In this document: positions 2,926 to 51,160 of the stretch, in pieces
How the letters are laid out: each line of letters opens with the position of its first letter
How positions within the stretch are numbered: the stretch's first letter is position 1
From: Gemmatales bacterium
Lineage (GTDB): Bacteria; Planctomycetota; Planctomycetia; Gemmatales; HRBIN36
NCBI GenBank assembly: GCA_041640595.1
Contig: JBEPZY010000002.1
Coordinates: 178,984-242,983, forward strand
DNA: 64,000 nucleotides
Reading direction: 5' to 3'
Position numbers and translations under genes: made by a program
Notes under the pieces: generated by a model
What the model was told of the DNA's origin: nothing
Database searches by the model: none
What the model saw: the letters and a program-made list of their open reading frames with translations, nothing else

Positions 2926-4404
2926 ATGACAGCGACGCAGGCTTTGACCAGGCAAACTATCGCCAACCAGCTGAACGGTGTCTCAGCCGAACTGCTGGCG
3001 GCACTGCGAGCGATTGTCGGTGCGGACGGGGTGCTGACGGCTCCCAGCGATCTGGCGGTTTATGAGTGCGACGGTTACACCATTGCCAAAAATCGCCCCG
3101 ACGTGGTCGTCTTCCCGACCAGCACCGCCCAGGTCGTGGAAATTGTCCGCGTGTGTAACCGTTACAAAGTTCCCTTCCTGCCGCGCGGAGCAGGAACGAG
3201 TTTGTCCGGCGGATGTTTACCAGTTGGTGGCGGCGTGCTGATATGTTTGACACGCATGAAACGCATACTGGAAATCAATTACCGCGACGGTTACGCCGTC
3301 GTTGAGCCGGGCGTGGTCAATCTGTGGCTGACACGGGAAACCTCTCCGCGGGGCTGGCATTTCGCTCCCGATCCGTCCAGCCAGGGAGCGTGTACGATCG
3401 GGGGAAACGTAGCCACCAATTCCGGTGGGCCGCACACGCTGAAATACGGCGTCACCGTCAACCATGTGCTCGGTCTGGAAATTGTCCTGCCCGACGCCAC
3501 GGTGGTTCGCGTGGGCGGGCCGCCTGACGATTTGCCCGGTTACGACCTGACCGGTGTCCTGGTCGGTTCCGAGGGAACACTGGCGATCGTGACGAAGATA
3601 TGGGTGCGACTGACGCGCAATCCGGAAAGCTGGCGGACGCTGCTCGCCGTCTTCGATTCCGTGGACGATGCCACGCAAACTATCAGTGCGATTATCGCGG
3701 CCGGCATCATCCCCGCTGCTCTGGAGATGATGGACCAGCTGATTCTTCAGGCAGTGGAAGCGGCTTTTCACTTCGGCTTTCCTCTGGATGCGGGAGCGGT
3801 TTTGCTCATCGAAGTGGACGGTTTGCAGACCGGGCTGGATGAGGAGGCGGAGCGAATCATGGCTCTGGCTCAGGCTCATCACGCTCGCTCTGTGCGTCTG
3901 GCACGCGATGAGGCTGAGCGCCAGCTTTTGTGGAAATGCCGCAAACAGGCTTTCGGTGCCGTCGGCCGTCTCGCTCCCAGTTATTGCACCCAGGACGGAG
4001 TTGTGCCACGAACGCGTTTACCGGAAATGCTGCGACTCATTCGGCAAATCGGCGAAAAATACCAGATTCGCATCTGCAATGTCTTTCATGCCGGCGACGG
4101 CAATCTTCACCCCATCCTGCTTTTCGATGAACGCGACCCGGATCAGGTTCAGCGCGTGCTGCGAGCCAGCGAGGAGATTCTGGACGCCTGTTTGCAGATG
4201 GGCGGCAGCGTGACCGGCGAACATGGGATCGGCGTCGAAAAGCTGGATTTCATGCCCCGCATGTTCAGCCCCGCCGATCTGGCGATGATGGAGCGGCTCC
4301 GTCGGGCCTTCAATCCTGAAAATTGCCTCAGCCCGGGCAAGATGCTTCCCACAGCCGGTGCCTGTATCGAACCGACACGCCCGGGTCGTCGCGCTGCTCT
4401 CTAG
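2926..4404 (+). CDS. glcD: FAD-linked oxidase, glycolate oxidase subunit GlcD-like
   Basis: PRGAGTSLSGG, APDPSS, GSEGTL, HAGDGNLHP, GEHGIG motifs. Confidence 0.85.
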   Translation: MTATQALTRQTIANQLNGVSAELLAALRAIVGADGVLTAPSDLAVYECDGYTIAKNRPDVVVFPTSTAQVVEIVRVCNRYKVPFLPRGAGTSLSGGCLPVGGGVLICLTRMKRILEINYRDGYAVVEPGVVNLWLTRETSPRGWHFAPDPSSQGACTIGGNVATNSGGPHTLKYGVTVNHVLGLEIVLPDATVVRVGGPPDDLPGYDLTGVLVGSEGTLAIVTKIWVRLTRNPESWRTLLAVFDSVDDATQTISAIIAAGIIPAALEMMDQLILQAVEAAFHFGFPLDAGAVLLIEVDGLQTGLDEEAERIMALAQAHHARSVRLARDEAERQLLWKCRKQAFGAVGRLAPSYCTQDGVVPRTRLPEMLRLIRQIGEKYQIRICNVFHAGDGNLHPILLFDERDPDQVQRVLRASEEILDACLQMGGSVTGEHGIGVEKLDFMPRMFSPADLAMMERLRRAFNPENCLSPGKMLPTAGACIEPTRPGRRAAL

Positions 4405-4482
4405 GCGTGCCGCCTGCTGACGGAAGGGAAAGTTGGTAGTAGTCATGGGCGTCGTCGCGCTGCTCTCTGGGCGTGCTGCTTG
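4385..4482. repeat. 32-bp direct repeat (glcD 3' end duplicated) with a 34-bp spacer
   Basis: 4385-4416 vs 4451-4482, 3 mismatches, period 66. Confidence 0.85.
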
Positions 4483-4502
4483 AACCAACCGCTACCGCCA
4501 TC

Positions 4503-4685
4503 CTCGCCGACACCGTCAGCGTCTGAGCCCCGGCAACCACACGGACTAGCAGCTGGGGACTCACTCCGCCGGGATTCTCGCCGACACCACCAACGTCTGA
4601 GGCCCGACAACCACACGGACTAGCAGCTGGCGACTCACTGCGCCGGGATTCTCGCCGACACCACCGGCGTCTGAGGCCCGGCAAC
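4503..4685. repeat. 74-bp tandem repeat, about 2.5 copies (three 35-bp repeats with a duplicated 39-bp spacer)
   Basis: CTCGCCGACACC...CGTCTGAG at 4503, 4577, 4651. Confidence 0.9.
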
Positions 4686-4722
4686 TCCATCACCGTCGTC
4701 AGCGCTTGTGGAAACCCGCTGC

Positions 4723-4891
4723 ATTGCCGGAAAAGCCGTGCTACCCCTCGGCTGATATCAATTCCACCCACCGGGACCGCGCCAATGGCGTGGCTGGTTC
4801 ACCCTCGTTCATAATCAACTCGGCCGATACCAATTCCACCCACCGGGATTGCGCCTGCCTGATTGCCGGAAAAGTCGTACTACCCGTCGGC
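4723..4891. repeat. Two nested direct-repeat pairs
   Basis: ATTGCCGGAAAAGYCGTRCTACCC at 4723/4862 (offset 139); TCGGCYGATAYCAATTCCACCCACCGGGA at 4748/4820 (offset 72). Confidence 0.85.
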
Positions 4892-4896
4892 CCCCT

Positions 4897-5078
4897 GCCA
4901 ACATCGAAAACCGTCCTAATGCACACCACGCCGCGAGAGCGACTTACGGCTTTTTCGCCGGGGCTTTCCTGCGAACATCGAAAACGGTCCTAATGCAAAC
5001 CACGCACCGCGGATTGCGGAATTCAGCTCCTCGCGGGATGGCTGCCAACATCGAAAACCGTCCGGATGCAAACCACGC
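4897..5078. repeat. CRISPR-like mini array: three 35-bp repeats, two unique spacers (39 and 38 bp)
   Basis: Consensus GCCAACATCGAAAACCGTCCTAATGCAAACCACGC at 4897, 4971, 5044; no cas gene nearby. Confidence 0.8.
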
Positions 5079-5222
5079 ACGCGTTTGTAGTGTGCCCGCG
5101 GAGTTAGCAACCGTTTCTGGCCACGAACTGACGCCCACCGCTCCTGGTTGTGTGGTCGCTAGTCGCTGAATGTCATGCGGCTTCCGAGTGCGTGCGGTTT
5201 TTCGGGGTGGGTTAGCGTTCGC

Positions 5223-5401
5223 AGCGTTCGCTCCAACAACAAAGTGATCTAGCGCAAGCCCCCATGCCGCGACCGCCAGACGGGTCAGATGTGGGTTAGC
5301 GTTCGCTCCATCAACAAAGCGATCTAGCTCCATTGATGATGACGGCACGATCGTCGGTCGCGTTGAGGTTGGCGTTCACTCCGTCAACAAAGTGATCTAG
5401 C
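5223..5401. repeat. CRISPR-like mini array: three ~31-bp repeats with unique spacers
   Basis: AGCGTTCGCTCCATCAACAAAGTGATCTAGC-like at 5223, 5298, 5371 (periods 75, 73). Confidence 0.8.
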
Positions 5402-5417
5402 TCCCGTCGGCTTCCGA

Positions 5418-5515
5418 GTGTGGGCGCTTATTCGGGAAGGTTAGCGGCCTAGCTTTGACTGGCACAAAGTTTGATAACGAAGCCGTGCGGGCGCTTATCC
5501 GGAAAGGTTAGCGGC
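5418..5515. repeat. 31-bp direct repeat overlapping the parB stop codon
   Basis: 5418-5448 vs 5485-5515, 3 mismatches, period 67. Confidence 0.8.
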
Positions 5516-6389
5516 GGAGGTGTTCGAGGAGGCGTTCAAAATCGTCGTTGTTCTGGAAATGGAGAATAATCTGGCCTTTTTCCCTGCCGCGGAGACGGAT
5601 TTCGACACGCGTCGCCAGGCGTTGTCGCAATTCTTCTTCGATGGCCTGAACATGCGGAGTCTTTTCTGCACTCGGGCGGGTGGTGTACCCCTGAGCGTTG
5701 GGGTCGGAAGGATGGCTCTGGACTTCTTCCCGGACAAGCTGTTCGACCGCCCGCACGGATAAGCCGCGGGCAATGATTTCCTGGCAGACTTCTTCCTGGC
5801 GTTGCGGTGAGGGCAGGCTGAGCAAGGCACGGGCATGGCCGAAACTGATTTGTCCAGTACGGATGGCGTCCTGGACACTGGGCGGCAAATCGAGCAAGCG
5901 AATGAAGTTGGTAACCGTGGTGCGATCCACGCCAATTTTGCGGGCCAGTTCTTCATGAGTAACGCCATAACGCTGGATATATTCGGCAAAGCCCTGGGCC
6001 TTTTCGATAGCGTTCAGGTCGCTGCGTTGCAGATTTTCGACGAGAGCGGCCTCGAAAACCTGCTGGTCGTTGAAATCCACAATGCGGACGGGAATCTCCT
6101 TCCAGCCCGCTTCCCGTGCGGCACGAAGGCGTCGTTCACCGACCACCACCTGGTAGCCACGCTCGGTAGGCCGAACCAGAATCGGTTGCAACAACCCGTG
6201 CGTTTGCAGGCTCTGTTTCAGAGCTTCCAGCTCTTCCGGATCGAAATCGCGGCGGGGTTGTAGCGGATTGGCTTCGATCTGATCGAGGGGGACCTGCAGA
6301 ATCGCCCCGGCTGGGTGTTCCGGGGAGTGTTTGTCCACAGCACCGAGCAGAGCTTCCAGCCCTTTTCCGAGCCGACGTTTTTCGGTCAC
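5508..6389 (-). CDS. parB: ParB/Spo0J chromosome partitioning protein
   Basis: RRLGKGL N-terminus, NPLQPRRDF, GERRLRA, ENLQRSDL, HTH region; GTG start at 6389 with GGAGG upstream. Confidence 0.93.
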   Translation of the reverse strand: MTEKRRLGKGLEALLGAVDKHSPEHPAGAILQVPLDQIEANPLQPRRDFDPEELEALKQSLQTHGLLQPILVRPTERGYQVVVGERRLRAAREAGWKEIPVRIVDFNDQQVFEAALVENLQRSDLNAIEKAQGFAEYIQRYGVTHEELARKIGVDRTTVTNFIRLLDLPPSVQDAIRTGQISFGHARALLSLPSPQRQEEVCQEIIARGLSVRAVEQLVREEVQSHPSDPNAQGYTTRPSAEKTPHVQAIEEELRQRLATRVEIRLRGREKGQIILHFQNNDDFERLLEHLRR

Positions 6390-6796
6390 GGCGTTCCTCC
6401 CGGCTTCCGACGGGTCGTGGGGAATGCTTGCGGCGATCAAAATGGCCTCGCGTCCGGCGCAGGTCGGCTTCCCGGCTGCGCACTTGCCGGCACCAACCAC
6501 TGAAAGGCTCAGCAGCAGGCCGGCCGCGACGAATGCGCTTCTTCCGCTACCGCCTTATACCACGTGCCGCCCAGCTATGGCAACGCGAATTTACCGTGTC
6601 GCCTGGCCAGACCATTACGCCAGCGGCGCACCGCGTGCGTTTCCGTGAACGCCTGTTATTGGCACGGCCGCAATGTCGTCTAATCGGTTGCCGATACAGC
6701 GTGCGGCAGGTGTTTTTGCCGGCCATCGGTTTGGGATACAATCGGAATAGACCGCGTGGTCGAGGGCAATCCTCAGCAAGCGGAGCGTGATTGGCG

Positions 6797-8134
6797 ATGC
6801 GCATGCGGATTTTTGCGGGGCTGATGGTGGCGGTGTGGTGGTGGGTCGGGCCGACACAGGCGCTGGCAGGAGTGCATTGTTCTGCGGAGACCTATGCCGC
6901 TTTGCCATGCCAGTGGTCCGGCTTCCTGAACGACTGGCGCACGCTCCGCACTATCGCGGTGCCCGACAGAACCGCTGGTTTGGCGGGTAGCCCCGTCGGT
7001 AGCAGCGAAAGACGCCGGCTCTATCAGCAGCGCGTCGAACGCCTGGAAGATCGGCGAAAGCAAGGCCAACTGAGCGCGGATGAGTGGGCCGATCTGGGAG
7101 CGTATTATCTGCGGCTGGGCGAAGTGCATCGGGCGGCCGAGGTGCTTCAGCAGGCGTATCAACGCCACCCGCATCACTTTGCCGTCGTCGCCAACCTGGG
7201 CACTGCCTGGCAACGGTTGGGCAATCTGGAGCGCTCGGCGGCATTGCTGGAGCAAGCCGTCTCGCTGGCCCCGCCTCGCTGGCGCAGGTTTGAGGAATAC
7301 CACTGGCGATTGGTGCAGCAGCGGTTGAAGAGCAACAATGCTGGCCAGCTGATGCTGGACGACCTGTTCGGTGTGCACTACGGCCAGCTCAACGGTTCGT
7401 ATGAGCCGGGCCGATTGCCTCCCGAACAACGCCAACGCCTGCCGGAGGATGCGCTGGCTATTGTGCAGCAACTGGTGTTGTGGTTACCCGAAGATGTGGC
7501 GCTGGTGTGGCAACTGGCGGAACTGGCGGCTGTGTATGGCGACCTCAAGACGGCCGGGCTGCTGTTCGACTGGCTGGTAACTGCTGCTGCCGTGGCTTCG
7601 CCGGAAGTGCGAGCACGACGCCAGATCGTTCGGCAGCGGTTGCAGGAAATGGCCAATAAGCCGGATTCGCCAGCGGGTCATGCGAATCACCCACCGATCG
7701 CGTTTCGCTCGCGGCGAGCCTTGCTCGGCAGTCAGTTCGATGCCAGTTCTCTGCCTCCGGTGCGACGCGATGACGTCAACCCGTTGCCCTGGGGATTGCT
7801 GCTCGACACGCATCTGGATCAACGGTTACGCCCGACTTTTCCCCAACGGCTGCAAGATTTGAACGGCCACCTGGTGAGCATCACCGGCTTTTTGCAGCCG
7901 CTGGGCGAAGAAATCGAAGGCCGGCTCTTTATGCTCCTGGAATATCCTGTCAGTTGCTGGTATTGCGAAATGCCGGAACCGACCGGGATTGTTCTGGTGG
8001 AAATAGCCGAGGGAAAAACTGCCGCATGGCAACCACATCTGGTCAAGGTGGTTGGTCGGCTCCGTCTCAACGCCAGCGATCCGGAAGATTTCCTGTTCCA
8101 GATCAAAAACGCCACCATTACAACGCCGGACTAA
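6797..8134 (+). CDS. Exported TPR protein with C-terminal DUF3299-like OB-fold domain
   Basis: Signal peptide, TPR-like helices (DLGAYYLRLG, NLGTAWQRLG), C-terminal 'LNGHLVSITGFLQP...CWYCEMP...VKVVGRL'. Confidence 0.6.
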   Translation: MRMRIFAGLMVAVWWWVGPTQALAGVHCSAETYAALPCQWSGFLNDWRTLRTIAVPDRTAGLAGSPVGSSERRRLYQQRVERLEDRRKQGQLSADEWADLGAYYLRLGEVHRAAEVLQQAYQRHPHHFAVVANLGTAWQRLGNLERSAALLEQAVSLAPPRWRRFEEYHWRLVQQRLKSNNAGQLMLDDLFGVHYGQLNGSYEPGRLPPEQRQRLPEDALAIVQQLVLWLPEDVALVWQLAELAAVYGDLKTAGLLFDWLVTAAAVASPEVRARRQIVRQRLQEMANKPDSPAGHANHPPIAFRSRRALLGSQFDASSLPPVRRDDVNPLPWGLLLDTHLDQRLRPTFPQRLQDLNGHLVSITGFLQPLGEEIEGRLFMLLEYPVSCWYCEMPEPTGIVLVEIAEGKTAAWQPHLVKVVGRLRLNASDPEDFLFQIKNATITTPD

Positions 8135-14107: not shown

Positions 14108-14510
14108 GTTCAACGAGCGCACGGCAACGTTCGCAGAGATTACGCCTGCCGCATTGCTACGCCGAGAAGGAGGGACACAGTTCAACGAGCGCACGGCAAT
14201 GCTCGCAGAGATTATGGGTCGAATTTGGGCGGACAGATTGCAGGTTGGGGCTCGGACCGGTTGAGCGCCCACTCTAAGGAGAATACGGGTCGAATTGGCA
14301 CGGACGGATTGCATGGCCGCTGGCCGCATTTGCGCTCGCCGTCTGCAGATTACGGGTCGGATTTGCACGGACAGATTGCAGGTTGGGGGCCTCGGACCGG
14401 CCGAGCGCCCACCCTAAGGAGATTACAGGTCGGATTGGCGCGGACGGATTCCAGGAGCACAAACGCTGTATGCGAGGTCGAGCTGGAGTTAGAGGTCGCA
14501 GGTCGAATTT
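14108..14510. repeat. Chained direct-repeat arrays, period 67-73 bp
   Basis: 37-bp pair at 14108/14180; GATTACGGGTCGRATT.G..CGGAC.GATTGCA-like units with GGTCG cores at 14217, 14288, 14355, 14428, 14501. Confidence 0.85.
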
Positions 14511-16879: not shown

Positions 16880-16966
16880 GGCGAACCGGTAAAACTCCGT
16901 TACGCGGTAAGCACCGCAACAAAGACGGTCGCTACCGGCAACCACGGCGAACCGGTAAAACTCCGT
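16880..16966. repeat. Exact 21-bp direct repeat, period 66
   Basis: GGCGAACCGGTAAAACTCCGT at 16880 and 16946. Confidence 0.85.
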
Positions 16967-19556: not shown

Positions 19557-19630
19557 TCACCCATTCCGGAAAATCGAGAACTGTTCGGTTGAGCCGCGGG
19601 CAGAGCTGTCGAAGGCCACCGGGAAATCGG

Positions 19631-19778
19631 TTCATCGTGCGTTGTGCGAAATTGCGAGTGCCCAGGTGCGGAACACGCGAATCCCGATTCCGCGGCGAAA
19701 CAGATTCATCGTGCGTTGTGCGAAATTGCGAGCGCCCCGGTGGGGAACACGGGAAGCCCGATTCCGAAGCGAAACGCA
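19631..19778. repeat. 74-bp tandem repeat, 2 copies
   Basis: TTCATCGTGCGTTGTGCGAAATTGCGAG at 19631 and 19705. Confidence 0.9.
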
Positions 19779-19879
19779 TTGACCGCCACGGCCAAAAATG
19801 GACGGATTGCCGGTTGAAATCGTTGCGCTGCGTTTGGGCCCGAACCAGTTCCCCCGCGCTAAGGCGAGAATGGATCGAT

Positions 19880-19984
19880 CGGCGTTCCTAGTCGTGAGCT
19901 GGCACCGTGAAACCTACGCAAATCTTTATTGCCTTGGAGGGCTATGCGGCGTTCCTAGTCGTCGTGAGCTGGCACTGTGAAACC
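19880..19984. repeat. About 35-bp direct repeat, period 67
   Basis: CGGCGTTCCTAGTCGT(CGT)GAGCTGGCACYGTGAAACC at 19880 and 19947. Confidence 0.85.
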
Positions 19985-20099
19985 GTGCGATCGGTCCGAG
20001 CGAAACGTCGCTAACAATGAGACATGGGGGCATGATTCGCACGTGACTGGCGATTCGGCGAGCACCTGGAGCCAGCGTTGGGATCACCGTCACCGTGCG

Positions 20100-20203
20100 G
20101 TTCACTCACACAGAAAGCAGTGTGCGCGGCTCGAGCACGACGAGAGCGGTTCGGTTTCGGGTAGCGGCGTTCGCTCACGCAGAAGGTAGTGTACGTGGTT
20201 TGA
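20100..20203. repeat. Degenerate direct repeat, period 69
   Basis: TTCRCTCACRCAGAARGYAGTGTRCGYGG at 20101 and 20170. Confidence 0.65.
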
Positions 20204-20543
20204 CGTTCGAGCGGGTGCAGTCGATTCGTTGCTGCGGCGCGGTTTGCTCAGTAGCTTACGCAACAGCACCACGGCCCGTAACAATCTGCTCCCGGTTGCT
20301 CCGTTGCTGCTGAGCGGTTTGCTCATGCGGAAAGGGGAAATGTCCGGGAGGGCGAGAGTTGACGAACCCCGTAGCGATGTGATAGCTTGAAATAGTAGTG
20401 CCCAGGGAGAGCGGTGGGCACGACTGGTGTGGGAAACGAGAGGGGCCGCAGGGCTGGGCGCTGAGTTTGCGCCCGGTATAAAATGAACAGGAGCACAAGC
20501 GTCACCAATCCGGACGAGCACGTCCACGAGGAGTGGCATCCTC

Positions 20544-38952: not shown

Positions 38953-40013
38953 CGGGATTCGCTGCTTCTGGCGATTTGTTGCAGGTAGGCTTCGATGGCT
39001 TCGGCGACGTGCGGGGGATATTCGCGGCGGATGGCTTCGAGAACCTTCACCCGCTCCTTTTCCGGCAACTTGCCCCAGAGATCGGGTCGCTTCACGAGTT
39101 CCTTCATGTCCACCTTACCTTCGCCCCGCCCGCCTAAGATCGCGCTATCCCCAGCCGGGCTGGATGGCTTCAACGCTCCCGGACCAGTTCCTCGGCTACC
39201 CCCGGCCTGCCCGCCACCACCACCGCCACCGCTTCCTTGCTGGAGCTGGTCTTCGAGGTCTTTCACCATTTTGGCGAGCAAATCGAGGATTTCCTTTTGT
39301 TTCTCCTGCGTTTTCGGGCCACCCCGAGCGTTATCAAGGCGACCAGCGATTTCCTCCATGCGGCGAGCGACGTAGTCGAGGTTCTTCTGACCGTTCCAGC
39401 CTTCGAGATCGTATTTCAGAAGCGCAGCCAGAACGAAGTACCGTTCCGGCACCTGGTCGCGTTCCTGCAACAATCGGTCGGCACTGCGTAACGTCTCCGT
39501 GCGATGCAGGGTCTTGTGTTCGGCTATGCAGCGGAAAAAGTAATAAGCAGCCGGGTCAGCGGTGTGTTCGGGCTGAATAGCTCGCAGCACCTCGAGAGCC
39601 TCTTCGTAAGCCTTGCGCAGACACAGCAAGCGTGCATAAGCCAGAGCCAGATTGGCCCGGAAAAACGCAGGCTGAGCCTGGCGCAACACGGCAGGCACTT
39701 CGGTCGGCACTACCGCTTGCGGATCGTTCGCCTGGGCCAGCAGCTTCCGGGCATCGGCACTGGCCAGGGCGAAGATGTCGGCCAGCCGGACCAGCACCGG
39801 ACGGTTTTCCTGGGCCCAGATCTTCTCCGCTTGCTGCAACGTCTGCTCATCGGCGCGGACATGCTCTTTGAGCCATGCGAACAGCTCCGCCCGCACCTGG
39901 TCGGCTGGTGGAGCCTTGATTCGCTCGAACGAGGCCTGCTGAGCGCAGATCAGGCCGCACATCACCCCCAGGCAAACCGCCACGACGCCGTTTCTCATCA
40001 AGACTCGCATCAT
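38949..40013 (-). CDS. Exported helical/TPR-like hypothetical protein
   Basis: Signal peptide, helical repeats, Gly-rich linker, WGKLPEKER...YPP...IEAY C-terminus. Confidence 0.7.
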   Translation of the reverse strand: MMRVLMRNGVVAVCLGVMCGLICAQQASFERIKAPPADQVRAELFAWLKEHVRADEQTLQQAEKIWAQENRPVLVRLADIFALASADARKLLAQANDPQAVVPTEVPAVLRQAQPAFFRANLALAYARLLCLRKAYEEALEVLRAIQPEHTADPAAYYFFRCIAEHKTLHRTETLRSADRLLQERDQVPERYFVLAALLKYDLEGWNGQKNLDYVARRMEEIAGRLDNARGGPKTQEKQKEILDLLAKMVKDLEDQLQQGSGGGGGGGQAGGSRGTGPGALKPSSPAGDSAILGGRGEGKVDMKELVKRPDLWGKLPEKERVKVLEAIRREYPPHVAEAIEAYLQQIARSSESR

Positions 40014-42250
40014 CGGTTCTTCCCCTTGACGATATTTTCGGTGATCTGGTGCAACTGTAATTGCCGGGCGGCCAGTTCCCGCAGTTCTGCTGCAATGTCA
40101 GGCGCTGTCGCCGCTTCACCCTGGTATTTGCGACCGTACATCACCGTCCGCTGGTAAATGCGTTTCTGCATGGCGTGGATCATTTTCAATTCCTGCAGCA
40201 GGTCAATCAGCCGCTCGTTGCGATTTGGATCGCCGCCACCACCCTGATTCCCGCCGCCACGGTTATTTTGCCGCTGCTCGATCTCCTTTTTGAGGGCCTC
40301 GATCATTTCCTTGAGGGTCTCGATGATGTCCTGCTCAATGGCCTGAGTTTCGGGGCCAGGATCAGTCTTGTACAGCCGGTTGGAAACGCGTGCCATATCC
40401 TGGCGAAGTTGCCGCATCACTTCCGCAAACGCCACCGAGGAGCCTTCGGCCTGGAGCAAAGCGATAGCCCGATCCGCCTCGGCTACGATCTCATCTTCCC
40501 GCCGCGACAGCACTCCGGAAAGTATTTCTTCCTCGCGGGTAGGCTTTTTGTCGGGATTGGTTTGAATGCGCTGGTCGAGCTTGACCGTATCCTGATAAAC
40601 GGCTTCCTGCATGGCCAGCATCTTTTCGCAGCGGCGTTGCAGGTCGGCCAGCACACGCAACTGTTCCTCTTCGCGGTATTGCCGTAACAACTCCTCTAAC
40701 TTTTGCCGGGCTTGACGGAGCAAGTCGGCGGCTTTGGCTTGATCATCGGAAGCGGGCTTCCTTTCATCCTTGGCGATGCGGTTTTCGGCACTGCGCTGGT
40801 AGCCGTGAGCGTCTTCGATGCGTTCGCGGCCAGGCACACCGGGTTGCTGCTGGCCTTGCTGACCGCCACCGCGTGCTTGACCCGACTGCCCACCACCTTG
40901 CTGACCACCACCCTGCTGCCCGCCCCCTTGTTGACCGCCAGCTTGACTGCCACCCTGTTGCCCACCGCCCTGTTGACCACCACCTTGTTGCCCACCGGCG
41001 CCACGGGTCTGTGGATTGGCGGCACCTTCTCCCGGACCTCGTGCCTGAGCGCCCTGGCTACCCTGATCTCCACCAGGCTTGCCACCGCCGGCTTGACCAC
41101 TGCCCGGTTTATCGCCCGGCTTTCCGCCGCCGGCCTGACCGTCGCCCGGTTTGTCCCCAGGTTTTCCACCGCCGGCCTGACCACTGCCCGGTTTATCGCC
41201 CGGCTTTCCGCCGCCGGCCTGACCGTCGCCCGGTTTGTCCCCAGGTTTACCACCGCCGGCCTGACCACCGCCGGGTTTATCACCGCCCTGTCCGCTGTCG
41301 CTGCCCCCGCGAGCCTGGCCGGGCTTCGAACCGTCACCGGACTGGTTGCCGCCACGTGCCTGCGAACCGGACTCGTTGGGCGAGCCACCGCGCGCCTGGC
41401 CGGTCTGTTCGGAACCAGGTTTACCGGAATCGGGAGTGCGTGCCTGAGGATTGGGCGCTCCCCGACCTTCATCGCGGGCTTGACCGGGTTGTCCGGAACC
41501 GCTCCGTCCCTCGCCGCGTGCTTGCGCTTCTGGTCGTTCGTTTTTGCCGGCATCACGTGCTTCACCGCGGCTCGGATCACCCTGGCCGGAACGAGCCTGT
41601 TCAAGTTGCCGAATCTGGTTCAGGATTTCCTCCACTCTTCGGCTGGCGGCTTCCTGAGCTTTCTTGGCGTCCTCCTTGCTGATATTGGGATTGTCGTTGC
41701 GTGCCTGAGCAACACGCTGGGCCCGTTCCGCTTCCTCCAGCCGACGAATCAACTCCGCGTAGAGCTCCATTTCCTTTTTCTTGAGCGATTCGTCGTCGGG
41801 GGACATGAGGATATCGAGCAAGCGTTGCATGGCTTGCTGAACATCGCCACCCTTTTCGACGACCTGCTGGATTTCTTTCAAACTGCTCAGCGTACCGGGT
41901 CGTTTGAGCCGCTCTGCCAGGTCGCTGACATTGAGCCGGACGTTGCGTTCACGGGCTTCCCGCAGGGCACGGTAAATGATGCGGGCTTTTTCGACGTCGC
42001 CGGGATTATTGCGCCGTTCCATCAATTGAGCGATGCGCAACAACTGCTCTTCGAGCTGAGCGTAGCGGGCTGCCACGACCGCCTGATTGGCGGCCAGTTC
42101 GTCGGTCAACTGATTGCTGGGCTGCTTCGGGGCAGGCTGGCCTTTCTCATCGGGATTGCCAGTTGGCTGAGCCAGTACTGCCAGGGTCAGGCTCCACGTC
42201 AGCACGGCAACCAGCGACACCAGCAGCGTGAGTTTGTGGCTTGTCAACAT
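40010..42250 (-). CDS. Exported coiled-coil protein with long Gly/Gln-rich repeat linker (DUF4175-like)
   Basis: Signal peptide from ATG 42250 (alternative start 42304); GQAGGGKPGDKPG and GGQQG repeats between coiled coils. Confidence 0.75.
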   Translation of the reverse strand: MLTSHKLTLLVSLVAVLTWSLTLAVLAQPTGNPDEKGQPAPKQPSNQLTDELAANQAVVAARYAQLEEQLLRIAQLMERRNNPGDVEKARIIYRALREARERNVRLNVSDLAERLKRPGTLSSLKEIQQVVEKGGDVQQAMQRLLDILMSPDDESLKKKEMELYAELIRRLEEAERAQRVAQARNDNPNISKEDAKKAQEAASRRVEEILNQIRQLEQARSGQGDPSRGEARDAGKNERPEAQARGEGRSGSGQPGQARDEGRGAPNPQARTPDSGKPGSEQTGQARGGSPNESGSQARGGNQSGDGSKPGQARGGSDSGQGGDKPGGGQAGGGKPGDKPGDGQAGGGKPGDKPGSGQAGGGKPGDKPGDGQAGGGKPGDKPGSGQAGGGKPGGDQGSQGAQARGPGEGAANPQTRGAGGQQGGGQQGGGQQGGSQAGGQQGGGQQGGGQQGGGQSGQARGGGQQGQQQPGVPGRERIEDAHGYQRSAENRIAKDERKPASDDQAKAADLLRQARQKLEELLRQYREEEQLRVLADLQRRCEKMLAMQEAVYQDTVKLDQRIQTNPDKKPTREEEILSGVLSRREDEIVAEADRAIALLQAEGSSVAFAEVMRQLRQDMARVSNRLYKTDPGPETQAIEQDIIETLKEMIEALKKEIEQRQNNRGGGNQGGGGDPNRNERLIDLLQELKMIHAMQKRIYQRTVMYGRKYQGEAATAPDIAAELRELAARQLQLHQITENIVKGKNR

Positions 42251-42548
42251 CGTTGCGATTCCTCCCAATCCGGTCTGCGAGCAAACCATTCCCCGTCGGT
42301 GCATGATTGTCTCCCTCCAGGACATTGTAGGCATACCTGGAACCTGGCGCTGGCGAAATTCCGAGCCGTTTCACGAAGCGGGACGGTTCTGGCAGCCTGG
42401 CCCGCTCGCGCTTGCCGCTTGACCCTCATCCTGCGGTCAAGGATACATCGTCTGGCGGGCGTTTGCCAGTGCAGGCCCCACTGATAAGACGAACCACTTG
42501 CTTTCGCGCAACAGGAATTTTCTCACCGGGGGTGCTTGGTTCGGTCGG

Positions 42549-44684: not shown

Positions 44685-44769
44685 GCCTTTCTCCTTCGCC
44701 TGACGCTATGGCAGTGCCGCTTCGCTCGATGGGATTCGCGTATTTTACAACTCTGGCATGGATTTTTGG

Positions 44770-45350
44770 GTCCGCTCTGGTCTTCTTGTGCCGGTGCGCA
44801 GATACGTCCCGAGGCTTCCTGATGATTGCACCCTAGTCCGCCTTGGTCTTCTTTGTGCCAGTGCGCAGATAGTCCTCATAGAGTTGCGCGAACCTCTCCA
44901 AGTCCGCTTTTGGTGTTCTTTGTGCCAGTGCGCAGATACATCACGAGCCCTCTTGAGGATTGCACCCTAGTCCGCCTTGGTCTTCTTGTGCCGTTGCGCA
45001 GATAGTTCTCGTAGAGTTGCGCGAACCTTTCCAGGTCCGCTTCTGGTGTTCTTTGTGTCGGTGCGCAGATACATCACGAGTCTTCTTGAGGATTGCACCC
45101 AGGCCCGCTTTGGTCTTCTTGTGCTGTTTTTGGTCTTCTTGGGCCGTTGCGCAGATAGTTCTCGTAGAGTTGCGCGAACCTTTCCAGGTCCGCTTCTGGT
45201 GTTCTTTGTGCCGGTGCGCAGATAGTTTCCATAGAGTTACGCGAACCTTTCCAAGCCCCCTTTGGTCTCTTTTCTGCCGTTGCGCAAATAGCTCTCAGAG
45301 TTGCGCGAACCTCTCCAAGCCCGCTTCTGGCGTTGTTTGTGTCGGTGCGC
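44770..45350. repeat. Array of 9 degenerate ~35-bp repeats, period 65-67 bp, two spacer types
   Basis: GCGCAGATA-type cores at 44796, 44863, 44930, 44996, 45063, 45149, 45216, 45282, 45347 (one interval lengthened by a ~20-bp duplication). Confidence 0.9.
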
Positions 45351-45502
45351 TCGAGGTGATTGGCACATTTTACGACCAAACCGGCCGCAGGCCAGGCAAC
45401 TCGCCGCAACACCTGCCGCCAGCCCGGCGGCTCCCCCACGCGCCGACGGCTAAAGCGGCGGTGCGAAGTAGCACCTACCAACACGCCGTGCCTGGCGCCG
45501 GT

Positions 45503-45610
45503 TCGCTAGTTCACCAGAACGGCGGTGGTGCTGGGCTGATTGTGACGGCGATGACGACTGGTTTTTCGACGGGGAGTCGCTAGTTCACCAGAACGCCGGT
45601 GGTGCTGGGC
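45503..45610. repeat. 34-bp direct repeat duplicating the 3' end of the ELWxxDGT gene
   Basis: 45503-45536 vs 45577-45610, 1 mismatch, period 74. Confidence 0.9.
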
Positions 45611-48438
45611 GGGGTGAAGCTCACGATCGCGTCGTTGCCGGCCATGTCGCGGATGAACGTGCCCGCTGGCCGCATAATCGGCGAGAGTATCTCTATCCCG
45701 TTCGTGTCGCGGTCGGAGGACTGAATCACATAGCGGAACCGCAGCGTTCTCGAGTCCGGTTGGCTGTAGAAAACCGCGTTGCGAATCACACTGCCGATAC
45801 GCAGCTGGATAAATGGTTTCGCGGTGCTGGTGGTACCGACGTTGACCGACTCACTGAATCGCACCACGATGTCCAGCGCCTGGCCGGTTACATAATGCCC
45901 GTTGGCCGGCGGTGTTACCAGCACAATCGTCGGGGCCACCGCATCCACTTTCACGTTCGGCGTGCTCGGATTGGTGAAGGTCGTGATAGCATCGTGCCCG
46001 GCCTGGTCGCGGATGAAAGTTCCCGCAGGCAGCAGAATCGGCGAGAGGATTTCGATCCCGTCGGTGTCCAGATCGCCGCTTTGCACTACGGAGCGGAAGC
46101 GCAGCGTGGTGGGGTCCGGTTGGATGTCGAAAAGCGCATCAGCAGTCCGCGAGCCAATCCGCACCTGCAGATGTGGCCGAAGGGTGCTGGTGGTGCCAAC
46201 GGTGACCGGCTCACTGAAGCGAATTAAGATTTCCAGTGCCCCGCCGGCACGATACCAGCCGTTGGCTGGCGGCGTAACCTGAACGATGCTCGGCGGTACA
46301 GTATCCACCAGAACGCCACTGGTATCCGGCGGTACAAAAACCAGGGCCGCAGCGTTGTCCGCGGTGTCCTTAATCGTTCCGCCGTTCAGGTCGAGCGGCG
46401 AAACTACGGTGATCCCATCTGTGTCCAGGTCGTCTGACTGCACAGTGTACCGGAAGAGCAAACTGCTCGAGCCGCTGCCGGACTGAAAGGTCGCGTAACG
46501 CGTCGCGTCGCCGATGGTCAGTTGCAAGCGCGGTGTCCCGAAAGTGGTGTCCACCACCACCGGACGGTCGAATACCACGGTGAAATCGAGGTTCTGGCCA
46601 AGCTTGTAAATGCCGCTTCCGGGGCCGCTGACGCTGTCAATCACCGGGCCCTGGTGATTGACCAGCACGACACTGAGCGGAGGCGTAAAGTCCAGCTGAG
46701 CATGGTTGCCTGCCCTGTCTCTGATGCTCCCCCCATTGAGGTCAATAGGCGTAACCAGGGTGATGCCATCCGAGTCCAGGTCTTCTAGTGCCACCGTATA
46801 ACGGAAGCGAAGAGTAGTTGTGCCACTGCCGGACTCATAGGTCGCATACCGGACCAACGGGGGAATGCTTTCGCCCACGTTGCTGCCGAACCTCAGCACC
46901 AGTCGCGGCGTGCCCGTAACCAACACTGGTTCGCTGAATTCCACCTCGAAATAAAGATCGTCCTCCACCGAGTAGTTGCCATTAGCCGGTGGCGAGACCC
47001 GGATAATTTCAGGCTCCAGCTCGTCGCTGGCCCAGAGTTCCATGCCATGCGTGCCATCGCTAGCAGCGAAAAACAGCGTGCCGTTGACGTTGGTGAGCCA
47101 CGTGGGACTGGAGCCAGCCGAACCCGGCCGGATATCTTGCACCAGGTAGGTGCTGTTCGCATCGCCATAACTGAACCAGAGTTCCCTGCCATACGTGCCA
47201 TCGTCGGCCAGGAAGAACAGCACACCGTTGACGTTGGTCAGCCCGGAGGGCTCAGAACTAGCAGAACCCGGCCGGATGTCCTTGACCATCACGGTGCCGC
47301 CGGACGTGCCATCACTCTTCCAGAGTTCGAGGCCATTCGTGCCATCGTTGGCAGCGAAAAACAGTGTGCCGTTGACGTTGGTGAGCTTGTTAGCGCCGGA
47401 CCCAAACGGACTCGGCCGGAAGGCCTTGACCATCACGGTGCCGCTGGATGTGCCATCGCTTTTCCAGAGTTCGATGTTGGAGGAGAAGGACCCAAGGCCA
47501 GTCCAGAAAACCAGTGTGCCGTTGACGTTGGTGAGATAGCTAGGATTGGAGCTAGCCAAGCCCGACCGGATGTCCCTGACCGGCACGGTGCCGGTGGACG
47601 TGCCGTCGCTTTTCCAGAGTTCGTAGCCGCTGGTGCCGTCGTTGGCCCGGAAAAACAACGTGCCGTTGACGTTGGCGAGCCACGCAGGGTTGGAATCAGC
47701 CGAGCCCGGTCCGATGTTCTTGACTAGCACGGTGCCAGTGGAAGTGCCATCGCTCTTCCAGAGTTCGTAGCCGCTGGTGCCGTCGTCGGCCCGGAAAAAC
47801 AGCGTGCCGTTGACGTTGGTGAGCGACACAGAACGCGAATCACCTGAGCCCGGCCAGATGTCCTTGACCAGCACGGTGCCAGCGGAAGTGCCATCACTCT
47901 TCCAGAGTTCTCTTCCCTTCGTGCCGTCGTCGGCGGTGAAAAACAGCGTGCCGTTGACGTTGGTGAGATAGCGAGGATGGGAGCGAGCCGAGCCCGGCCA
48001 GATGTCCCTGACCAGCATGGTGCCAGTGGAAGTGCCATCACTCTTCCAGAGTTCTCTTCCCTTCGTGCCGTTGTCGGCCGTGAAAAACAGCGTGCCGTTG
48101 ACGTTGGTGAGCCAGTAAGGATTGGAGCCAGCCGTGCCCGGACGGATGTCCCGGACCATGACGGTGCCGGAGGACGTGCCATCGCTCTTCCATAGTTCCG
48201 CACCGAAACGCCCCTGGCGGGCTACGAAAAACAGCGTGCCGTTGACCTCGGTGAAGTTGCTGGGCGAGGAGCTTCCTGCCCCAGGGAAAATGTTTCTGAC
48301 CAGGAATGTGGCCGGCACGGTGCGGTCTTCGAGTTGCTCGAAACCCAGTTGGGCCTTGTGAGACGGGCGGGATGGTTTCGGTTGCTCCGCCACGAATCCC
48401 AGACACATCCGCCACACGTTGAGCAGCCACTTGCGCAT
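45580..48438 (-). CDS. Secreted ELWxxDGT-repeat protein with four C-terminal Ig-like repeats
   Basis: FEQLEDRTVPA planctomycete export motif; 7 exact ELWKSDGT plus 2 variant repeats; four Ig-like repeats (PPANG / LRFRY / DLDTDGI); AAGGAGG before ATG 48438. Confidence 0.9.
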   Translation of the reverse strand: MRKWLLNVWRMCLGFVAEQPKPSRPSHKAQLGFEQLEDRTVPATFLVRNIFPGAGSSSPSNFTEVNGTLFFVARQGRFGAELWKSDGTSSGTVMVRDIRPGTAGSNPYWLTNVNGTLFFTADNGTKGRELWKSDGTSTGTMLVRDIWPGSARSHPRYLTNVNGTLFFTADDGTKGRELWKSDGTSAGTVLVKDIWPGSGDSRSVSLTNVNGTLFFRADDGTSGYELWKSDGTSTGTVLVKNIGPGSADSNPAWLANVNGTLFFRANDGTSGYELWKSDGTSTGTVPVRDIRSGLASSNPSYLTNVNGTLVFWTGLGSFSSNIELWKSDGTSSGTVMVKAFRPSPFGSGANKLTNVNGTLFFAANDGTNGLELWKSDGTSGGTVMVKDIRPGSASSEPSGLTNVNGVLFFLADDGTYGRELWFSYGDANSTYLVQDIRPGSAGSSPTWLTNVNGTLFFAASDGTHGMELWASDELEPEIIRVSPPANGNYSVEDDLYFEVEFSEPVLVTGTPRLVLRFGSNVGESIPPLVRYATYESGSGTTTLRFRYTVALEDLDSDGITLVTPIDLNGGSIRDRAGNHAQLDFTPPLSVVLVNHQGPVIDSVSGPGSGIYKLGQNLDFTVVFDRPVVVDTTFGTPRLQLTIGDATRYATFQSGSGSSSLLFRYTVQSDDLDTDGITVVSPLDLNGGTIKDTADNAAALVFVPPDTSGVLVDTVPPSIVQVTPPANGWYRAGGALEILIRFSEPVTVGTTSTLRPHLQVRIGSRTADALFDIQPDPTTLRFRSVVQSGDLDTDGIEILSPILLPAGTFIRDQAGHDAITTFTNPSTPNVKVDAVAPTIVLVTPPANGHYVTGQALDIVVRFSESVNVGTTSTAKPFIQLRIGSVIRNAVFYSQPDSRTLRFRYVIQSSDRDTNGIEILSPIMRPAGTFIRDMAGNDAIVSFTPPSTTGVLVN

Positions 48439-48648
48439 GCAATCCTCCTTTCTACGGGTGGGTCGATGCGGAAAAGCCGCCGCAAAGTATTGGGGATGTG
48501 GCAACGGGCTCCAGATGCCAGACAACTGGAAAGGAGAGCGCGAACGGCTGCACGGGCCAGCGATTCTCACCCGCCCGGCCAGTTGAATGACAACCGTGGC
48601 TCGATGCCAGGTTTCGATGTTACCAGACCCGCCAGCCACCGTCAAGGG

Positions 48649-48901
48649 AAAACTGGCGATGAGTCAGAACTTGCGGCCGGCTTCGGCAAAAATTGGTGTC
48701 GCGGCCATGATTCGAACGCATGGGACGAGTCAGAACTTGCGGCCGCCTTCGCCTGGCTAACGACCGAGTATCAGCTCGACCGTCAAACAAAAACTGGGCA
48801 TGGGTCAGAAGTTGCGGGCAATACAAATTTCGACTTGATGAAGGCAGTGTTTACGCAACGCCACAAATTAGTCAGAAGTTGAGGGCAATACAGGTTTCGA
48901 C
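48649..48901. repeat. Four-copy degenerate repeat array with unique spacers
   Basis: GTCAGAASTTG cores at 48663, 48729, 48804, 48871 (periods 66, 75, 67). Confidence 0.85.
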
Positions 48902-48976
48902 GGCGGGCTCACCTCCGGATAGTGCGGTCATCGGACCGGCAGCAGGTCGTTCGCCGAGCGACGACTGCCAAATCAA

Positions 48977-50092
48977 GAGCGGCGGGCGTTATCCCGCCGT
49001 GGTATCGAAAAACGCATCTGCAACGGCGAGTGATCTTCGTGGAGTGGTTACGTTTGCCACTGCACAATCGGCTCCCGCACTACGGGGGGCTTACGCCCCC
49101 CGCTCTTGGTGAACGGTGTCCGGTCGGTGAGGAAATGGGGATTTTTGCGATACACGAACGCACGTTCCCAAGAGCGGCGGGCGTCAGCCCGCCGTGGTGT
49201 GGTAACGCCATTGCAATTGCGGACGCTTGCGACCAGCGACCCGCGTTAGGCTGCCGCTGGTCGGAAACCACGGTTGCAATGGCAAGGCACTGGATTTCCG
49301 CGTTTCGGATTCGCTTACCGAGTACATCCCACGGGGGGCTTACGCCCCCCGCTCTTGTTCCGACTACGACGACCGTCTGCCGAAAGAATGACGATTTTTG
49401 CGATGCACGAACGCACGTTCACAAGAGCGGCGGGGGTCAGCCCGCCGTGGTACGGTGAACCGAACGCCGTGCCGCAGGAATCACGCACTGTGCAGCGACT
49501 ATGCGACACGGAATCAAGAGCGGCGGGCCTCAGCCCGCCGTGGGTGTAAGTAACGCAATTGCAATTGCGGACGCGTTCGTCCAGCGGCGGGCGTGAGCCC
49601 GCCGTGTGTGTTGGGGAAGCGCACTTGCAAGAGCGCTTCCGCAAAGTCGCGGGGGACTGCCGACGGTGTGCTCACGAACGCCGGTGGAGTCGCAGTAGCG
49701 AACCCACGGGGGGCTTACGCCCCCCGCTCTTGTTCCGACTACGACGACCGTCTGCCGAAAGAATGACGATTTTTGCGATGCAGAAACGCACGTTCACAAG
49801 AGCGGCGGGGGTCAGCCCGCCGTGGTACGGTGAACCGAACGCCGTGCCGCAGGAATCACGCACTGTGCAGCGACTATGCGACACGGAATCAAGAGCGGCG
49901 GGCCTCAGCCCGCCGTGGGTTTGCAAATCGCGTGTGCGACGGCGATGCGATGAATTTCGGCGTCTCGAACTCGTGTGCGGAGCGCACTCCACGGGGGGCT
50001 TACGCCCCCCGCTCCTGGTTGCACGACGTGCGTTCGGCACAAGATGCGCGGTTTGCGATGCGAAGACGCTCGTCCGGCCAAGAGCGGCGGCG
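48977..50092. repeat. Large REP/BIME-like cluster (about 11 full palindromes plus one partial)
   Basis: Plus-strand GAGCGGCGGGCGTNAGCCCGCCGTGG type and minus-strand GAGCGGGGGGCGTAAGCCCCCCGTG type interspersed; includes a 218-bp duplication. Confidence 0.88.
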
Positions 50093-50110
50093 CTTTCGTG
50101 AGCTGGCGGG

Positions 50111-51094: not shown

Positions 51095-51160
51095 ATGTCT
51101 TTCCCGTTACCTGGCGTCGCGGCGAGCGAGGTCAGGACGGGTCAGCAGGGAGTGTCAGAC

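Follow-up and report, generated by a model that had tools for sequence, protein, structure and literature searches.

Length-ruled repeat-insert-repeat units, some of them nested, recur across the non-coding DNA of a Gemmatales genome segment

The long intergenic gap between a GlcD-like oxidase gene and parB has grown by the repeated gain of small units, most of which have the layout A-B-A, in which sharply bounded copies of a sequence A flank an unrelated segment B. The copies of A are 21-43 nt long and about 80-100% identical to one another, B measures about 29-52 nt with a mode of 35, and each event in the gap has added 66-75 bp. Later units lie inside earlier ones in an order that can be read back, and units of the same kind occur throughout the 64-kb stretch of DNA analysed here (the window), where they are confined to non-coding DNA and the very ends of genes.

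The gap lies between two convergent genes, that of an FAD-linked oxidase (GlcD-like; 2926-4404, forward strand; Pfam PF01565, E 1.7e-41, and PF02913, E 6.2e-71) and parB (5508-6500, reverse strand; Pfam PF02195, PF17762 and PF23552). Its first repeat holds the final 17 coding bases and the stop codon (4402-4404) of the GlcD-like gene, and its last repeat copy holds the parB stop codon (5508-5510) together with 5 coding bases. A repeat search of 4300-5600 returned eight direct-repeat families, among them those at 4385/4451 (period 66), 4495/4569/4643 (periods 74 and 74, the full 74-nt unit being present at 4495/4569), 4723/4862 (offset 139), 4747/4819 (period 72), 4894/4968/5041 (periods 74 and 73), 5219/5294/5367 (periods 75 and 73) and 5188/5418/5485 (offsets 230 and 67). 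All of the families with periods 66, 74, 72, 74/73, 75/73 and 67 that had been described in a sequence-only reading of this DNA were recovered, and its statement that they fill most of the gap is borne out by a hand count from the repeat boundaries, which leaves 148 of the 1131 bases of 4385-5515 outside the arrays (4483-4494, 4686-4722, 4892-4893 and 5081-5177). Over the same 1131 bases, 13 local-repeat segments (ungapped, score at least 14, offsets 15-399) were found, against none in each of 60 dinucleotide-preserving shuffles. In the gap, Tandem Repeats Finder picked up only two features, the 74-bp array with its 2.5 copies and, at 5214-5231, a duplication of 9 bp; the other families escaped it because they are built as repeat-spacer-repeat and lack a head-to-tail layout.

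Read from the GlcD-like end, event 1 consists of A at 4385-4416 (32 nt), B at 4417-4450 (34 nt) and A' at 4451-4482, with a period of 66, and in the second copy the stop codon TAG is replaced by TGG. The 74-bp array at 4495-4685 has the layout A-B-A-B-A, and since its two B segments are alike, it is read as a single insertion followed by duplication of the whole unit. Next comes a nested pair, the outer A of which (30 nt) lies at 4723-4752 and 4862-4891, while in the inner event (period 72) B at 4784-4818 is enclosed by 37-nt copies of A at 4747-4783 and 4819-4855; the target of the inner event was made up of the final 6 nt of the outer A and 31 nt of the outer B, which is 37 nt long. The three-copy array at 4894-5080 (A of 38-40 nt at 4894, 4968 and 5041) carries B segments, at 4932-4967 and 5006-5040, that are unrelated to each other. 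Beyond it, 5081-5177 is taken as an ancestral part of the gap, and holds a decayed copy of the REP-like hairpin element of the window (5113-5150, its extent judged by eye), in which 5131-5150 matches 50002-50021 at 19 of 20 nt, with weaker matches at 13836 and 49187. This REP-like hairpin family is an element separate from the A and B units.

The remainder of the gap is occupied by an outer family at 5178-5515, with A at 5178-5218, 5408-5448 and 5485-5515. In the 5178/5408 pair, A is 41 nt long and about 80% identical, whereas the 5408/5485 pair shares an A of 31 nt at 90% identity, with a period of 67 and B at 5449-5484. Nested within this family is a three-copy array at 5210-5404, the A copies of which (38-41 nt) end at 5253, 5331 and 5404 and enclose B segments at about 5254-5290 and 5332-5366; its first copy bears the 9-bp tandem duplication. 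The right boundaries of two events next to parB coincide to within 2 nt, and of the two copy pairs the one closer to parB is the younger, as judged from 90% against about 80% identity. Such re-use of a junction with polarity is the manner in which a CRISPR array gains units at its leader-proximal repeat.

The order of these events can be recovered by subtraction. The 4723/4862 offset had been explained in the sequence-only reading as 67 + 72, with a later unit landing in an earlier one, and removal of the inner event (139-72=67) indeed gives an outer period of 67. The 5178/5408 pair, which that reading took to bracket an inner array, is an exact 13-mer match, and its offset falls to 230-75-73-9=73 once both inner units (75+73) and the duplication of 9 bp are taken out. 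Both un-nested offsets, 67 and 73, lie within the 64-75 range of all other events in the window. Because the sums close only if each inner event contributed its full period, the gap was lengthened and its sequence was not overwritten; about 797 of its 1103 bases were added, and about 306 bp are left after subtraction. The reduction of 230 to 73, the unrelated B within A-B-A and the overlap of the outermost repeats with both stop codons are additions to the earlier account.

That account also inferred iterative, nested events at a hot spot. Iteration and nesting stand, as both sums close, whereas the hot spot does not, as A-B-A units are present in at least five further non-coding regions of the window (14108-14455, 16880-16966, 19616-20325, 44769-45610 and 48661-50597). 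In the first of these, an A-B-A event at 14108/14180, with a 37-nt A and a period of 72, overlaps by about 8 nt with an array of four copies at 14209, 14280, 14347 and 14420 (A 36 nt; periods 71, 67 and 73). The second, 16880-16966, is a short-A event (A 21 nt, 100% identical; B 45 nt; period 66), and the ORF that overlaps it is without a Pfam match. The third lies in a 987-bp gap between a metallophosphatase gene and a pilM-like gene, and comprises a whole-unit 74-bp duplication at 19616-19780 and events at 19880/19947 (period 67, shifting to 70 past an indel of 3 nt), 20100/20169 (weak, period 69) and 20227/20302 (period 75). At 44769-45350, about eight copies with a period of 66-67 and two alternating B types form a higher-order unit of 133-134 bp, followed by an event with A at 45503-45536 and 45577-45610 (34 nt, period 74). 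The second of these A copies holds the stop codon (45580-45582) and the final 28 coding bases of an ELWxxDGT-repeat protein gene (45580-48645, reverse strand). The last region has four related copies at 48661, 48727, 48804 and 48871 (periods 66, 77 and 67) and a seven-copy array at 50108-50597 (A 40 nt, period 75), in which two alternating 35-nt B types, one of them partly like its own A, give a 150-bp higher-order unit.

In all, the 64 kb of the window retain about 26 events, spread over almost all of its long non-coding regions, and three A copies span a stop codon. Offsets of 64-75 make up 36 of the 47 repeat segments in the non-coding DNA (7.36 kb of the window) against 2 of 16, both chance 10-mers, in the coding DNA (35.7 kb). 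The A-B-A events are a general property of the non-coding DNA of this genome, as seen in this window.

The units are regular in length. A census of local direct repeats in the window, which leaves out two coding-repeat regions, gave none at offsets 15-63, 27 segments at 64-75, and then multiples. In 21 of the 26 curated events, A measures 30-41 nt (s.d. 3.2) and B 29-39 nt (s.d. 2.5), the two being only weakly correlated (r = -0.32); within these main events an A of about 30-32 nt goes with periods of 66-67, and an A of about 36-41 nt with periods of 71-75. This is one ruler for the insert and two for the target, of sizes within the range of CRISPR spacers and repeats. The other five events combine a short A (21-27.5 nt) with a long B (40-52 nt), and their total is still 66-75. 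When the 26 events are taken together, A and B show a strong anticorrelation (r = -0.81), and the s.d. of the period is 3.5 against 8.1 expected if A and B were independent, a spread as small as this being reached in 0 of 100000 permutations. A strict gap in the periods at 68-70 was also considered and is weakened by the weak event of period 69.

The similarity between copies of A stops sharply, to within 1-3 nt. By eye, no common motif was seen at the boundaries of A, and leader polarity in the three-copy arrays was uninformative except at the parB end. The A repeats are unstructured, with fold z-scores of -0.9 to +2.0. The units had earlier been taken for duplications, a description that suits only 2 of about 20 families (4495-4685 and 19616-19780), as the others hold an unrelated insert of about 35 nt between the copies of the target.

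The B segments do not derive from nearby sequence, and we infer that they may be of foreign origin. No copies of B were found elsewhere in the 64-kb window, and the B segments are unrelated to one another beyond chance, 3 of 1256 comparisons lying just above the shuffle maximum. Barring six spacers duplicated within their own array, B and its own flanks of 400 nt on either side show no excess of common 7-mers, and likeness of B to its own A was seen in one of about 22 distinct B types. The codon-likeness of B (0.18) is close to that of non-coding A (0.15), with coding DNA at 0.37 and random composition at 0.01. Searches of phage and plasmid collections with 4385-5515 gave best E values of 1e+0 and 9e-2, respectively, in collections from which phages of this lineage are probably absent.

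The same signal was sought around parB in other species. A ParB search of reference species genomes yielded 19 loci, the best match being 80% identical, and in 296 kb of these 19 control loci, related Gemmatales included, there were no repeat segments at offsets 64-75. The two closest relatives (ParB 80% and 78% identical) carry parB without an adjoining GlcD-like gene. At the syntenic metallophosphatase-pilM-like region, the interval is 987 bp in the window against 140 bp in Gemmatales MAG L002, a difference which supports the gain of length per event.

A literature search found no account of an A-B-A pattern in Planctomycetes or of genome-wide A-B-A scars, and the units display individual features of several known systems. 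One of these is neo-CRISPR formation, in which Cas1-Cas2 integrates off target and so founds new arrays; according to Nivala et al. 2018, as cited in 10.1101/148544, PMC7054753, PMC6546382 and PMC6698737, this occurs in E. coli, and two further species offer circumstantial cases. Some of the citing passages describe the E. coli events as rare and dependent on over-produced Cas1-Cas2. In both cases a spacer-sized insert sits between duplicated, repeat-sized stretches of ordinary chromosomal DNA, and repeated use of the new pseudo-repeat can found a small array. A spacer-sized insert together with a target duplication of repeat length is present in 21 of the 26 curated events. The window differs in that its events are numerous, retained and nested, gene ends included, in that it is without a cas gene or true array, and in that a minority of its events conserve the total length and not that of the parts.

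Canonical CRISPR arrays likewise alternate direct repeats, here of 21-43 nt, with unrelated spacers of about 35 nt, and the periods of 66-75 bp have a counterpart in the arrays with 66-67-nt periods mentioned in PMC6749651. Such arrays are marked by near-identical repeats of about 23-47 nt at regular intervals, parted by unique spacers of much the same length, and the window shows this layout, though with only 2-8 copies and with some spacers recurring. In contrast to canonical arrays, each locus has its own repeat sequence, 80-100% alike between copies and unrelated to those of other loci, so that there is no one common repeat, and no cas genes adjoin. Some repeats are the ends of protein-coding genes, and spacers are duplicated within higher-order units. 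Rfam holds families for CRISPR direct-repeat RNAs, and none of these matched (cmscan, E<=1, over 3500-7000 and the whole window). Minisatellites and the MIRU-type units of mycobacteria are repeated as whole units head to tail, often as one family over many loci. They share with the units described here an intergenic period of tens of bp, sometimes reaching over gene ends, and a copy number that shifts by recombination; in the window, however, just half of the unit is repeated, with a different family at each locus. Outside 4495-4685 and 19616-19780, no whole-unit head-to-tail repetition was found, the matches being of 21-43 nt at offsets 64-75, and the A and B of the gap do not recur elsewhere in the window as a dispersed repeat (REP/BIME, MITE or MIRU-like) would. 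Casposons, which use a Cas1-family transposase, make target-site duplications of about 14-15 bp. As with these and other transposons, a duplicated target around inserted DNA implies staggered cuts and fill-in, whereas the inserts of the window are about 35 bp long, unrelated and without shared ends, and duplications of 30-41 bp far exceed any transposon target-site duplication known to us.

We tentatively propose, with slightly less than even confidence, that the units are the work of a CRISPR integrase of the Cas1-Cas2 type that integrated off target in series ('neo-CRISPR'), and that unequal recombination came afterwards. On this model an ancestral intergenic region of about 0.3 kb would have reached 1.1 kb through some 10-12 small insertions and one whole-unit duplication. 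At each insertion about 35 bp of unrelated DNA would enter a staggered opening of the target, leaving a local stretch of about 31 or about 38 bp on either side of the insert; the resulting A-B-A is the product that would be expected of a Cas1-Cas2-type integrase acting outside a CRISPR array. Later events would strike DNA added by earlier ones and give nesting, further use of the same junction would give three-copy mini-arrays, and unequal recombination between A copies would amplify whole units. In A-B-A an intact copy of the target remains beside each flank, so that an event across a stop codon does not alter the protein. Selection would purge events that fall within genes, and scars would therefore be kept only in non-coding DNA and at gene ends; the distribution of the events fits random hits with selection. 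Both the identity of the enzyme and the role of selection are what we infer from this pattern. No cas genes, canonical CRISPR arrays or defence genes were detected in the window (Pfam with 60 ORF queries, NCBIfam with 18 and PADLOC with 18), and the density of events is far above any known to us for off-target integration. The lack of phage and plasmid matches for B, its likeness to the non-coding DNA of this genome and the absence, by eye, of a common motif at the boundaries of A may also count against it. The short-A events, which conserve total length, also point to a ruler for the sum, unlike what independent spacer and repeat rulers would predict.

A serious rival is a length-ruled insertion process apart from Cas1-Cas2, which we regard as possible if doubtful. 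Each event would add a fixed quantum of 66-67 or 71-75 bp, composed of a variable copy of the target and non-local DNA, as might result if a small circle of constant circumference integrated by a single crossover, or from a template switch over a protein-defined footprint. The total is indeed conserved far better than the parts, as seen in the period spread and in the anticorrelation of A with B, the five events of short A still sum to 66-75, both whole-unit duplications keep an identical 74-bp period, and the lack of a cas gene in the window is in keeping with it. Against a strict quantum, the 21 main events behave as two nearly independent rulers and the 14209 array pairs a single A with periods of 71, 67 and 73, so that the sum is not wholly constant; the whole-unit duplications could equally well stem from an earlier A-B-A whose A copies crossed over unequally. 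We know of no enzyme or process that gives a fixed-quantum product.

Duplication of 66-75-bp units by slipped-strand or unequal crossover, with subsequent decay of one half and retention of the other by selection or gene conversion, draws on the two families that are truly head to tail and on the 133 and 150 bp higher-order units, which show that recombination amplifies arrays. It is disfavoured, and we hold it unlikely, since neutral decay cannot yield an A that is 80-100% identical beside a B at shuffle level with boundaries sharp to 1-3 nt, the sequence that follows the last A copy is unrelated to B, and slippage would have no reason to skip all offsets below 64. Moreover, A differs at every locus, includes gene ends and is unstructured, and so offers no common function for selection to keep. 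The same diversity of repeats, and the presence of the same architecture far from parB, make it quite improbable that the units are arrays of functional cis-elements (iterons, a centromere-like site for ParB, or small-RNA or terminator arrays between convergent genes), despite a gap that adjoins parB between convergent genes and a regular spacing that is typical of iterons. The site parS is a 16-bp palindrome, and a search with its consensus gave no match in the gap with up to 3 mismatches and a single parS-like match in the window, at 17290 with 2 mismatches, where at least one match arises in 26 of 100 shuffles. An RNA-family search (cmscan, E<=1; 3500-7000 and the whole window) returned only a chance miRNA match and one tRNA, terminator-like sites numbered 1 against 1.5 expected from shuffles, promoters were not above shuffles, and the repeats are again unstructured. 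An artefact of metagenome assembly comes to mind because the nearest named relatives of the SecY of the window are metagenome-assembled genomes, which suggests that the window too comes from one, and is very improbable: the copies differ by 0-20% and have indels of their own, the nesting order is consistent, its arithmetic closes and the gene ends are intact, and assemblers do not create diverged copies parted by unique 35-mers. Scarcely credible, finally, are the remains of a decayed repeat-protein gene, which the sequence-only reading had named among the findings that would overturn its own account. Reading frames of 95-147 aa do run through the gap, yet none of the four ORFs there has a Pfam match, the repeat families are mutually unrelated, and most periods, 67, 73 and 74 among them, are not multiples of 3.

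Direct evidence on the origin of CRISPR arrays, as presented in some of the citing passages named above, comes from E. coli over-producing Cas1-Cas2, and a few natural cases are circumstantial. A wild genome with dozens of dated, nested repeat-spacer scars would bear on how such arrays originate, since sequence alone would suffice to measure rates, target preferences and rulers. We know of no other direct evidence of this kind, and such a genome would point to an enzyme for testing. It would also show a new route for the growth of bacterial non-coding DNA, from 140 to 987 bp at one syntenic site. It is conceivable, although we consider it doubtful, that a lineage of Gemmatales possesses an insertion machine that is promiscuous and independent of arrays, either a Cas1-type integrase that no longer has site specificity or a novel enzyme. 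Such a machine would add DNA at any chromosomal site in quanta of 66-67 or 71-75 bp, would be chiefly responsible for the long intergenic regions of the lineage and would continuously make proto-CRISPR arrays from ordinary sequence, gene ends included. If so, this would be a natural, ongoing birth of repeat-spacer arrays from scratch, and if the enzyme is not Cas1-Cas2, the length ruler would be a new mechanism in itself.

The gene for a GlcD-type FAD-linked oxidase (2926-4404, plus strand) and parB (5508-6500, minus strand) are convergent, and the gap of 1103 bp between them (4405-5507) is filled with eight direct-repeat families, recovered by a repeat search with the coordinates and periods that the sequence-only reading had assigned and each clear in ungapped self-alignments. 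The patchwork of repeats described in that reading is well founded, since 4385-5515 holds 13 local-repeat segments (score at least 14, offsets 15-399) against none in each of 60 dinucleotide-preserving shuffles. Its description as duplication does not fit, as the sole head-to-tail family within the gap is that at 4495-4685, which is also the only multi-copy array that Tandem Repeats Finder reports there at such a period. The remaining families consist of a local copy (A), an unrelated segment (B) and A again. The A copies are approximately 80-100% identical and have sharp edges, with the background level reached 1-3 nt beyond A. Examples are the event with A at 4385-4416 and 4451-4482 around B at 4417-4450 (32 + 34, period 66), a family with three A copies at 4894, 4968 and 5041 separated by two different B segments of 35-36 nt (periods 74 and 73), and the 5294/5367 pair, whose B lies at 5332-5366. 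The first A of the gap includes the stop codon and last 17 coding bases of the oxidase gene, and the last A the stop codon and five coding bases of parB.

For 26 curated events, with boundaries read off alignments and ranges entered as midpoints, A measures 34.2 ± 5.9 nt, B 36.5 ± 5.5 nt and the period, A + B, 70.7 ± 3.5 bp; a period spread this small was seen in 0 of 100,000 permutations. The periods fall at 66-67 (n = 10) and 71-75 (n = 15), with a single event at 69. In the 21 events with A of at least 30 nt (standard deviations of 3.2 for A, 2.5 for B and 3.4 for the period), periods of 66-67 belong to an A of about 30-32 nt and periods of 71-75 to one of about 36-41 nt, three exceptions apart; B measures about 35 nt either way. 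The strong overall anticorrelation between A and B (r = -0.81, against -0.32 in the 21) is due to the other five events, in which A is short (21-27.5 nt) and B long (40-52 nt), the sum still being 66-75.

Nested, iterative events, as also proposed from the sequence, are confirmed by the arithmetic of the offsets. The 4723/4862 pair (offset 139) surrounds a 72-bp event at 4747/4819, which leaves 67; the 5178/5408 pair (offset 230) surrounds events of 75 and 73 together with a 9-bp tandem duplication (5214-5231, Tandem Repeats Finder), and subtraction of these 157 bp leaves 73. Both values lie within 64-75, the range of every other event. Overwriting would leave such sums not closing; that they close shows that the events added sequence, each lengthening the gap by its full period. 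Summed over the gap, 797 bases were added and 306 bp are residual. In both nests the inner target takes in the final 6-11 nt of the outer A and nearly the whole outer B; the next event landed in DNA that the previous one had added.

The gap is not the hot spot it was taken for, as A-B-A units of the same dimensions occur in seven other stretches of the window: 14108-14455, 16880-16966, 19616-20325, 44769-45350, 45503-45610, 48661-48902 and 50108-50597. A whole-window ungapped scan, leaving out two coding-repeat regions, found no local-repeat segment at offsets 15-63, 27 at 64-75, and then multiples. The identical scan of 296 kb from the 19 loci fetched by ParB search, 56 kb of which belong to five Planctomycetota loci (three titled Gemmatales or Gemmataceae), returned no segment at 64-75. 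When the threshold was lowered, 7.36 kb of non-coding DNA gave 47 segments, 36 of them at offsets of 64-75, and 35.7 kb of coding DNA gave 16, of which two fall in that range, both chance 10-mers; ORFs overlapping the arrays have no Pfam family. The stretches at 44769-45350 and 50108-50597 are mini-arrays of 7-8 copies with two spacer types in alternation, evidently an A-B1-A-B2 unit that was later amplified. In the 45503/45577 event the duplicated target includes a gene end and stop codon, and the copy lies 74 bp downstream. The gene in question (45580-48645, minus strand) encodes a protein of 1021 aa with ELWxxDGT repeats (NCBIfam TIGR04534, 10 stretches), and its coding repeats are 144 nt long. 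An ORF without a family match (40010-42334) carries low-complexity coding repeats of 15 and 42 nt at 40880-41324, which have nothing to do with the 66-75-bp process and do not enter the offset counts.

Other elements share these regions. REP-like G+C-rich hairpins are dispersed through the long non-coding regions that also hold A-B-A arrays (13764, 13912, 14006, 48976, 49171, 49424, 49581 and 49799; opposite-strand form at 49080, 49329, 49704 and 49989), and a decayed copy lies in residual gap DNA at about 5113-5150. Upstream of the S10 ribosomal-protein gene, 2.5 kb without a recognisable gene (48646-51180) are largely made up of such elements, of A-B-A arrays and of two copies of a 218-bp segment (49328-49545 and 49703-49920; 99% identity, 375 bp apart). 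Long minus-strand ORFs at 51155-59702 match no family and were rejected as genes, being antisense to a plus-strand ribosomal-protein operon (S10, L4 and L2 by Pfam); longest-ORF gene calling is misled by them in this G+C-rich genome. A tRNA gene (54147-54218, plus strand; Rfam, 67 bits) lies within the ribosomal-protein gene cluster.

The window falls among Gemmatales MAGs by SecY, and a SecY 96% identical to its own is known from another contig. In the genome collection, ParB finds its best matches in 'Bacterium HR36' (80%) and in a Gemmatales MAG, L002 (78%); in neither does the oxidase gene adjoin parB. In L002 the metallophosphatase gene directly adjoins parB, so in the window these two genes have come to lie about 11 kb apart. 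No parA lies directly upstream of parB in the window (5508-6804) or L002 (9722-9995); the one parS-like site of the window, at 17290, has two mismatches and falls within the metallophosphatase gene. The pairing of this gene with a following pilM-like gene is kept in L002, where the intergenic region measures 140 bp (7177-7316) against 987 bp in the window (19557-20543), and only about 25 nt ahead of the pilM start align. Of the 847 extra bases, recognisable events account for about 360 (summed by hand); the remaining 490 or so may stem from insertions of another type or from older events that have since decayed.

As to the origin of B, no second copy was found elsewhere in the window, the segments are not related to one another above chance, and 7-mers are not shared in excess with the flanks, save for spacers duplicated within their own array. 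B is also unlike its own A; only the even spacers in the array at 50108 resemble theirs (p = 0.005). In codon-likeness B (0.18) is near non-coding A (0.15), compared with 0.01 for random composition and 0.37 for coding DNA, and lies marginally under the value for coding DNA carrying 10% substitutions (0.26, p = 0.049).

An insert between two copies of its target implies that the target was cut in a staggered way, the insert joined to it and the single strands filled in. To our knowledge, Cas1-Cas2 is the only enzyme that makes target duplications of about 30-40 bp around inserts of about 35 bp. We tentatively propose, at a little under an even chance, that the A-B-A units derive from off-target activity of this CRISPR adaptation integrase: the target would be opened by staggered cuts, an insert of about 35 bp joined, and fill-in would leave a target of about 30-40 bp on both sides. 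According to Nivala et al. 2018, as cited in 10.1101/148544, PMC7054753, PMC6546382 and PMC6698737, off-target Cas1-Cas2 integration gives rise to new arrays in E. coli. Such an origin would account for a single insert length alongside targets of two length classes, for three-copy arrays with different spacers, and for the parB end, where one junction was re-used and the younger copy pair lies nearer to it. However, the window contains no cas gene, true CRISPR array or CRISPR repeat family, comparison of the gap with phage and plasmid collections gave no meaningful match, no protospacer was found, the event density is extreme, and the short-A events keep the sum of A and B constant. That some unknown mechanism ruled by length made the units instead is a less likely but serious alternative. 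Plain tandem duplication followed by decay, functional binding-site or RNA arrays, an assembly artefact and a decayed repeat-protein gene were each contradicted by a test.

Selection would retain the scars only in non-coding DNA and at sites spanning stop codons. Our literature search found no description of such growth of non-coding DNA by CRISPR-like units. The gap between the oxidase gene and parB exemplifies a process acting across the genome, by which repeat-spacer units resembling those of CRISPR are added to non-coding DNA.
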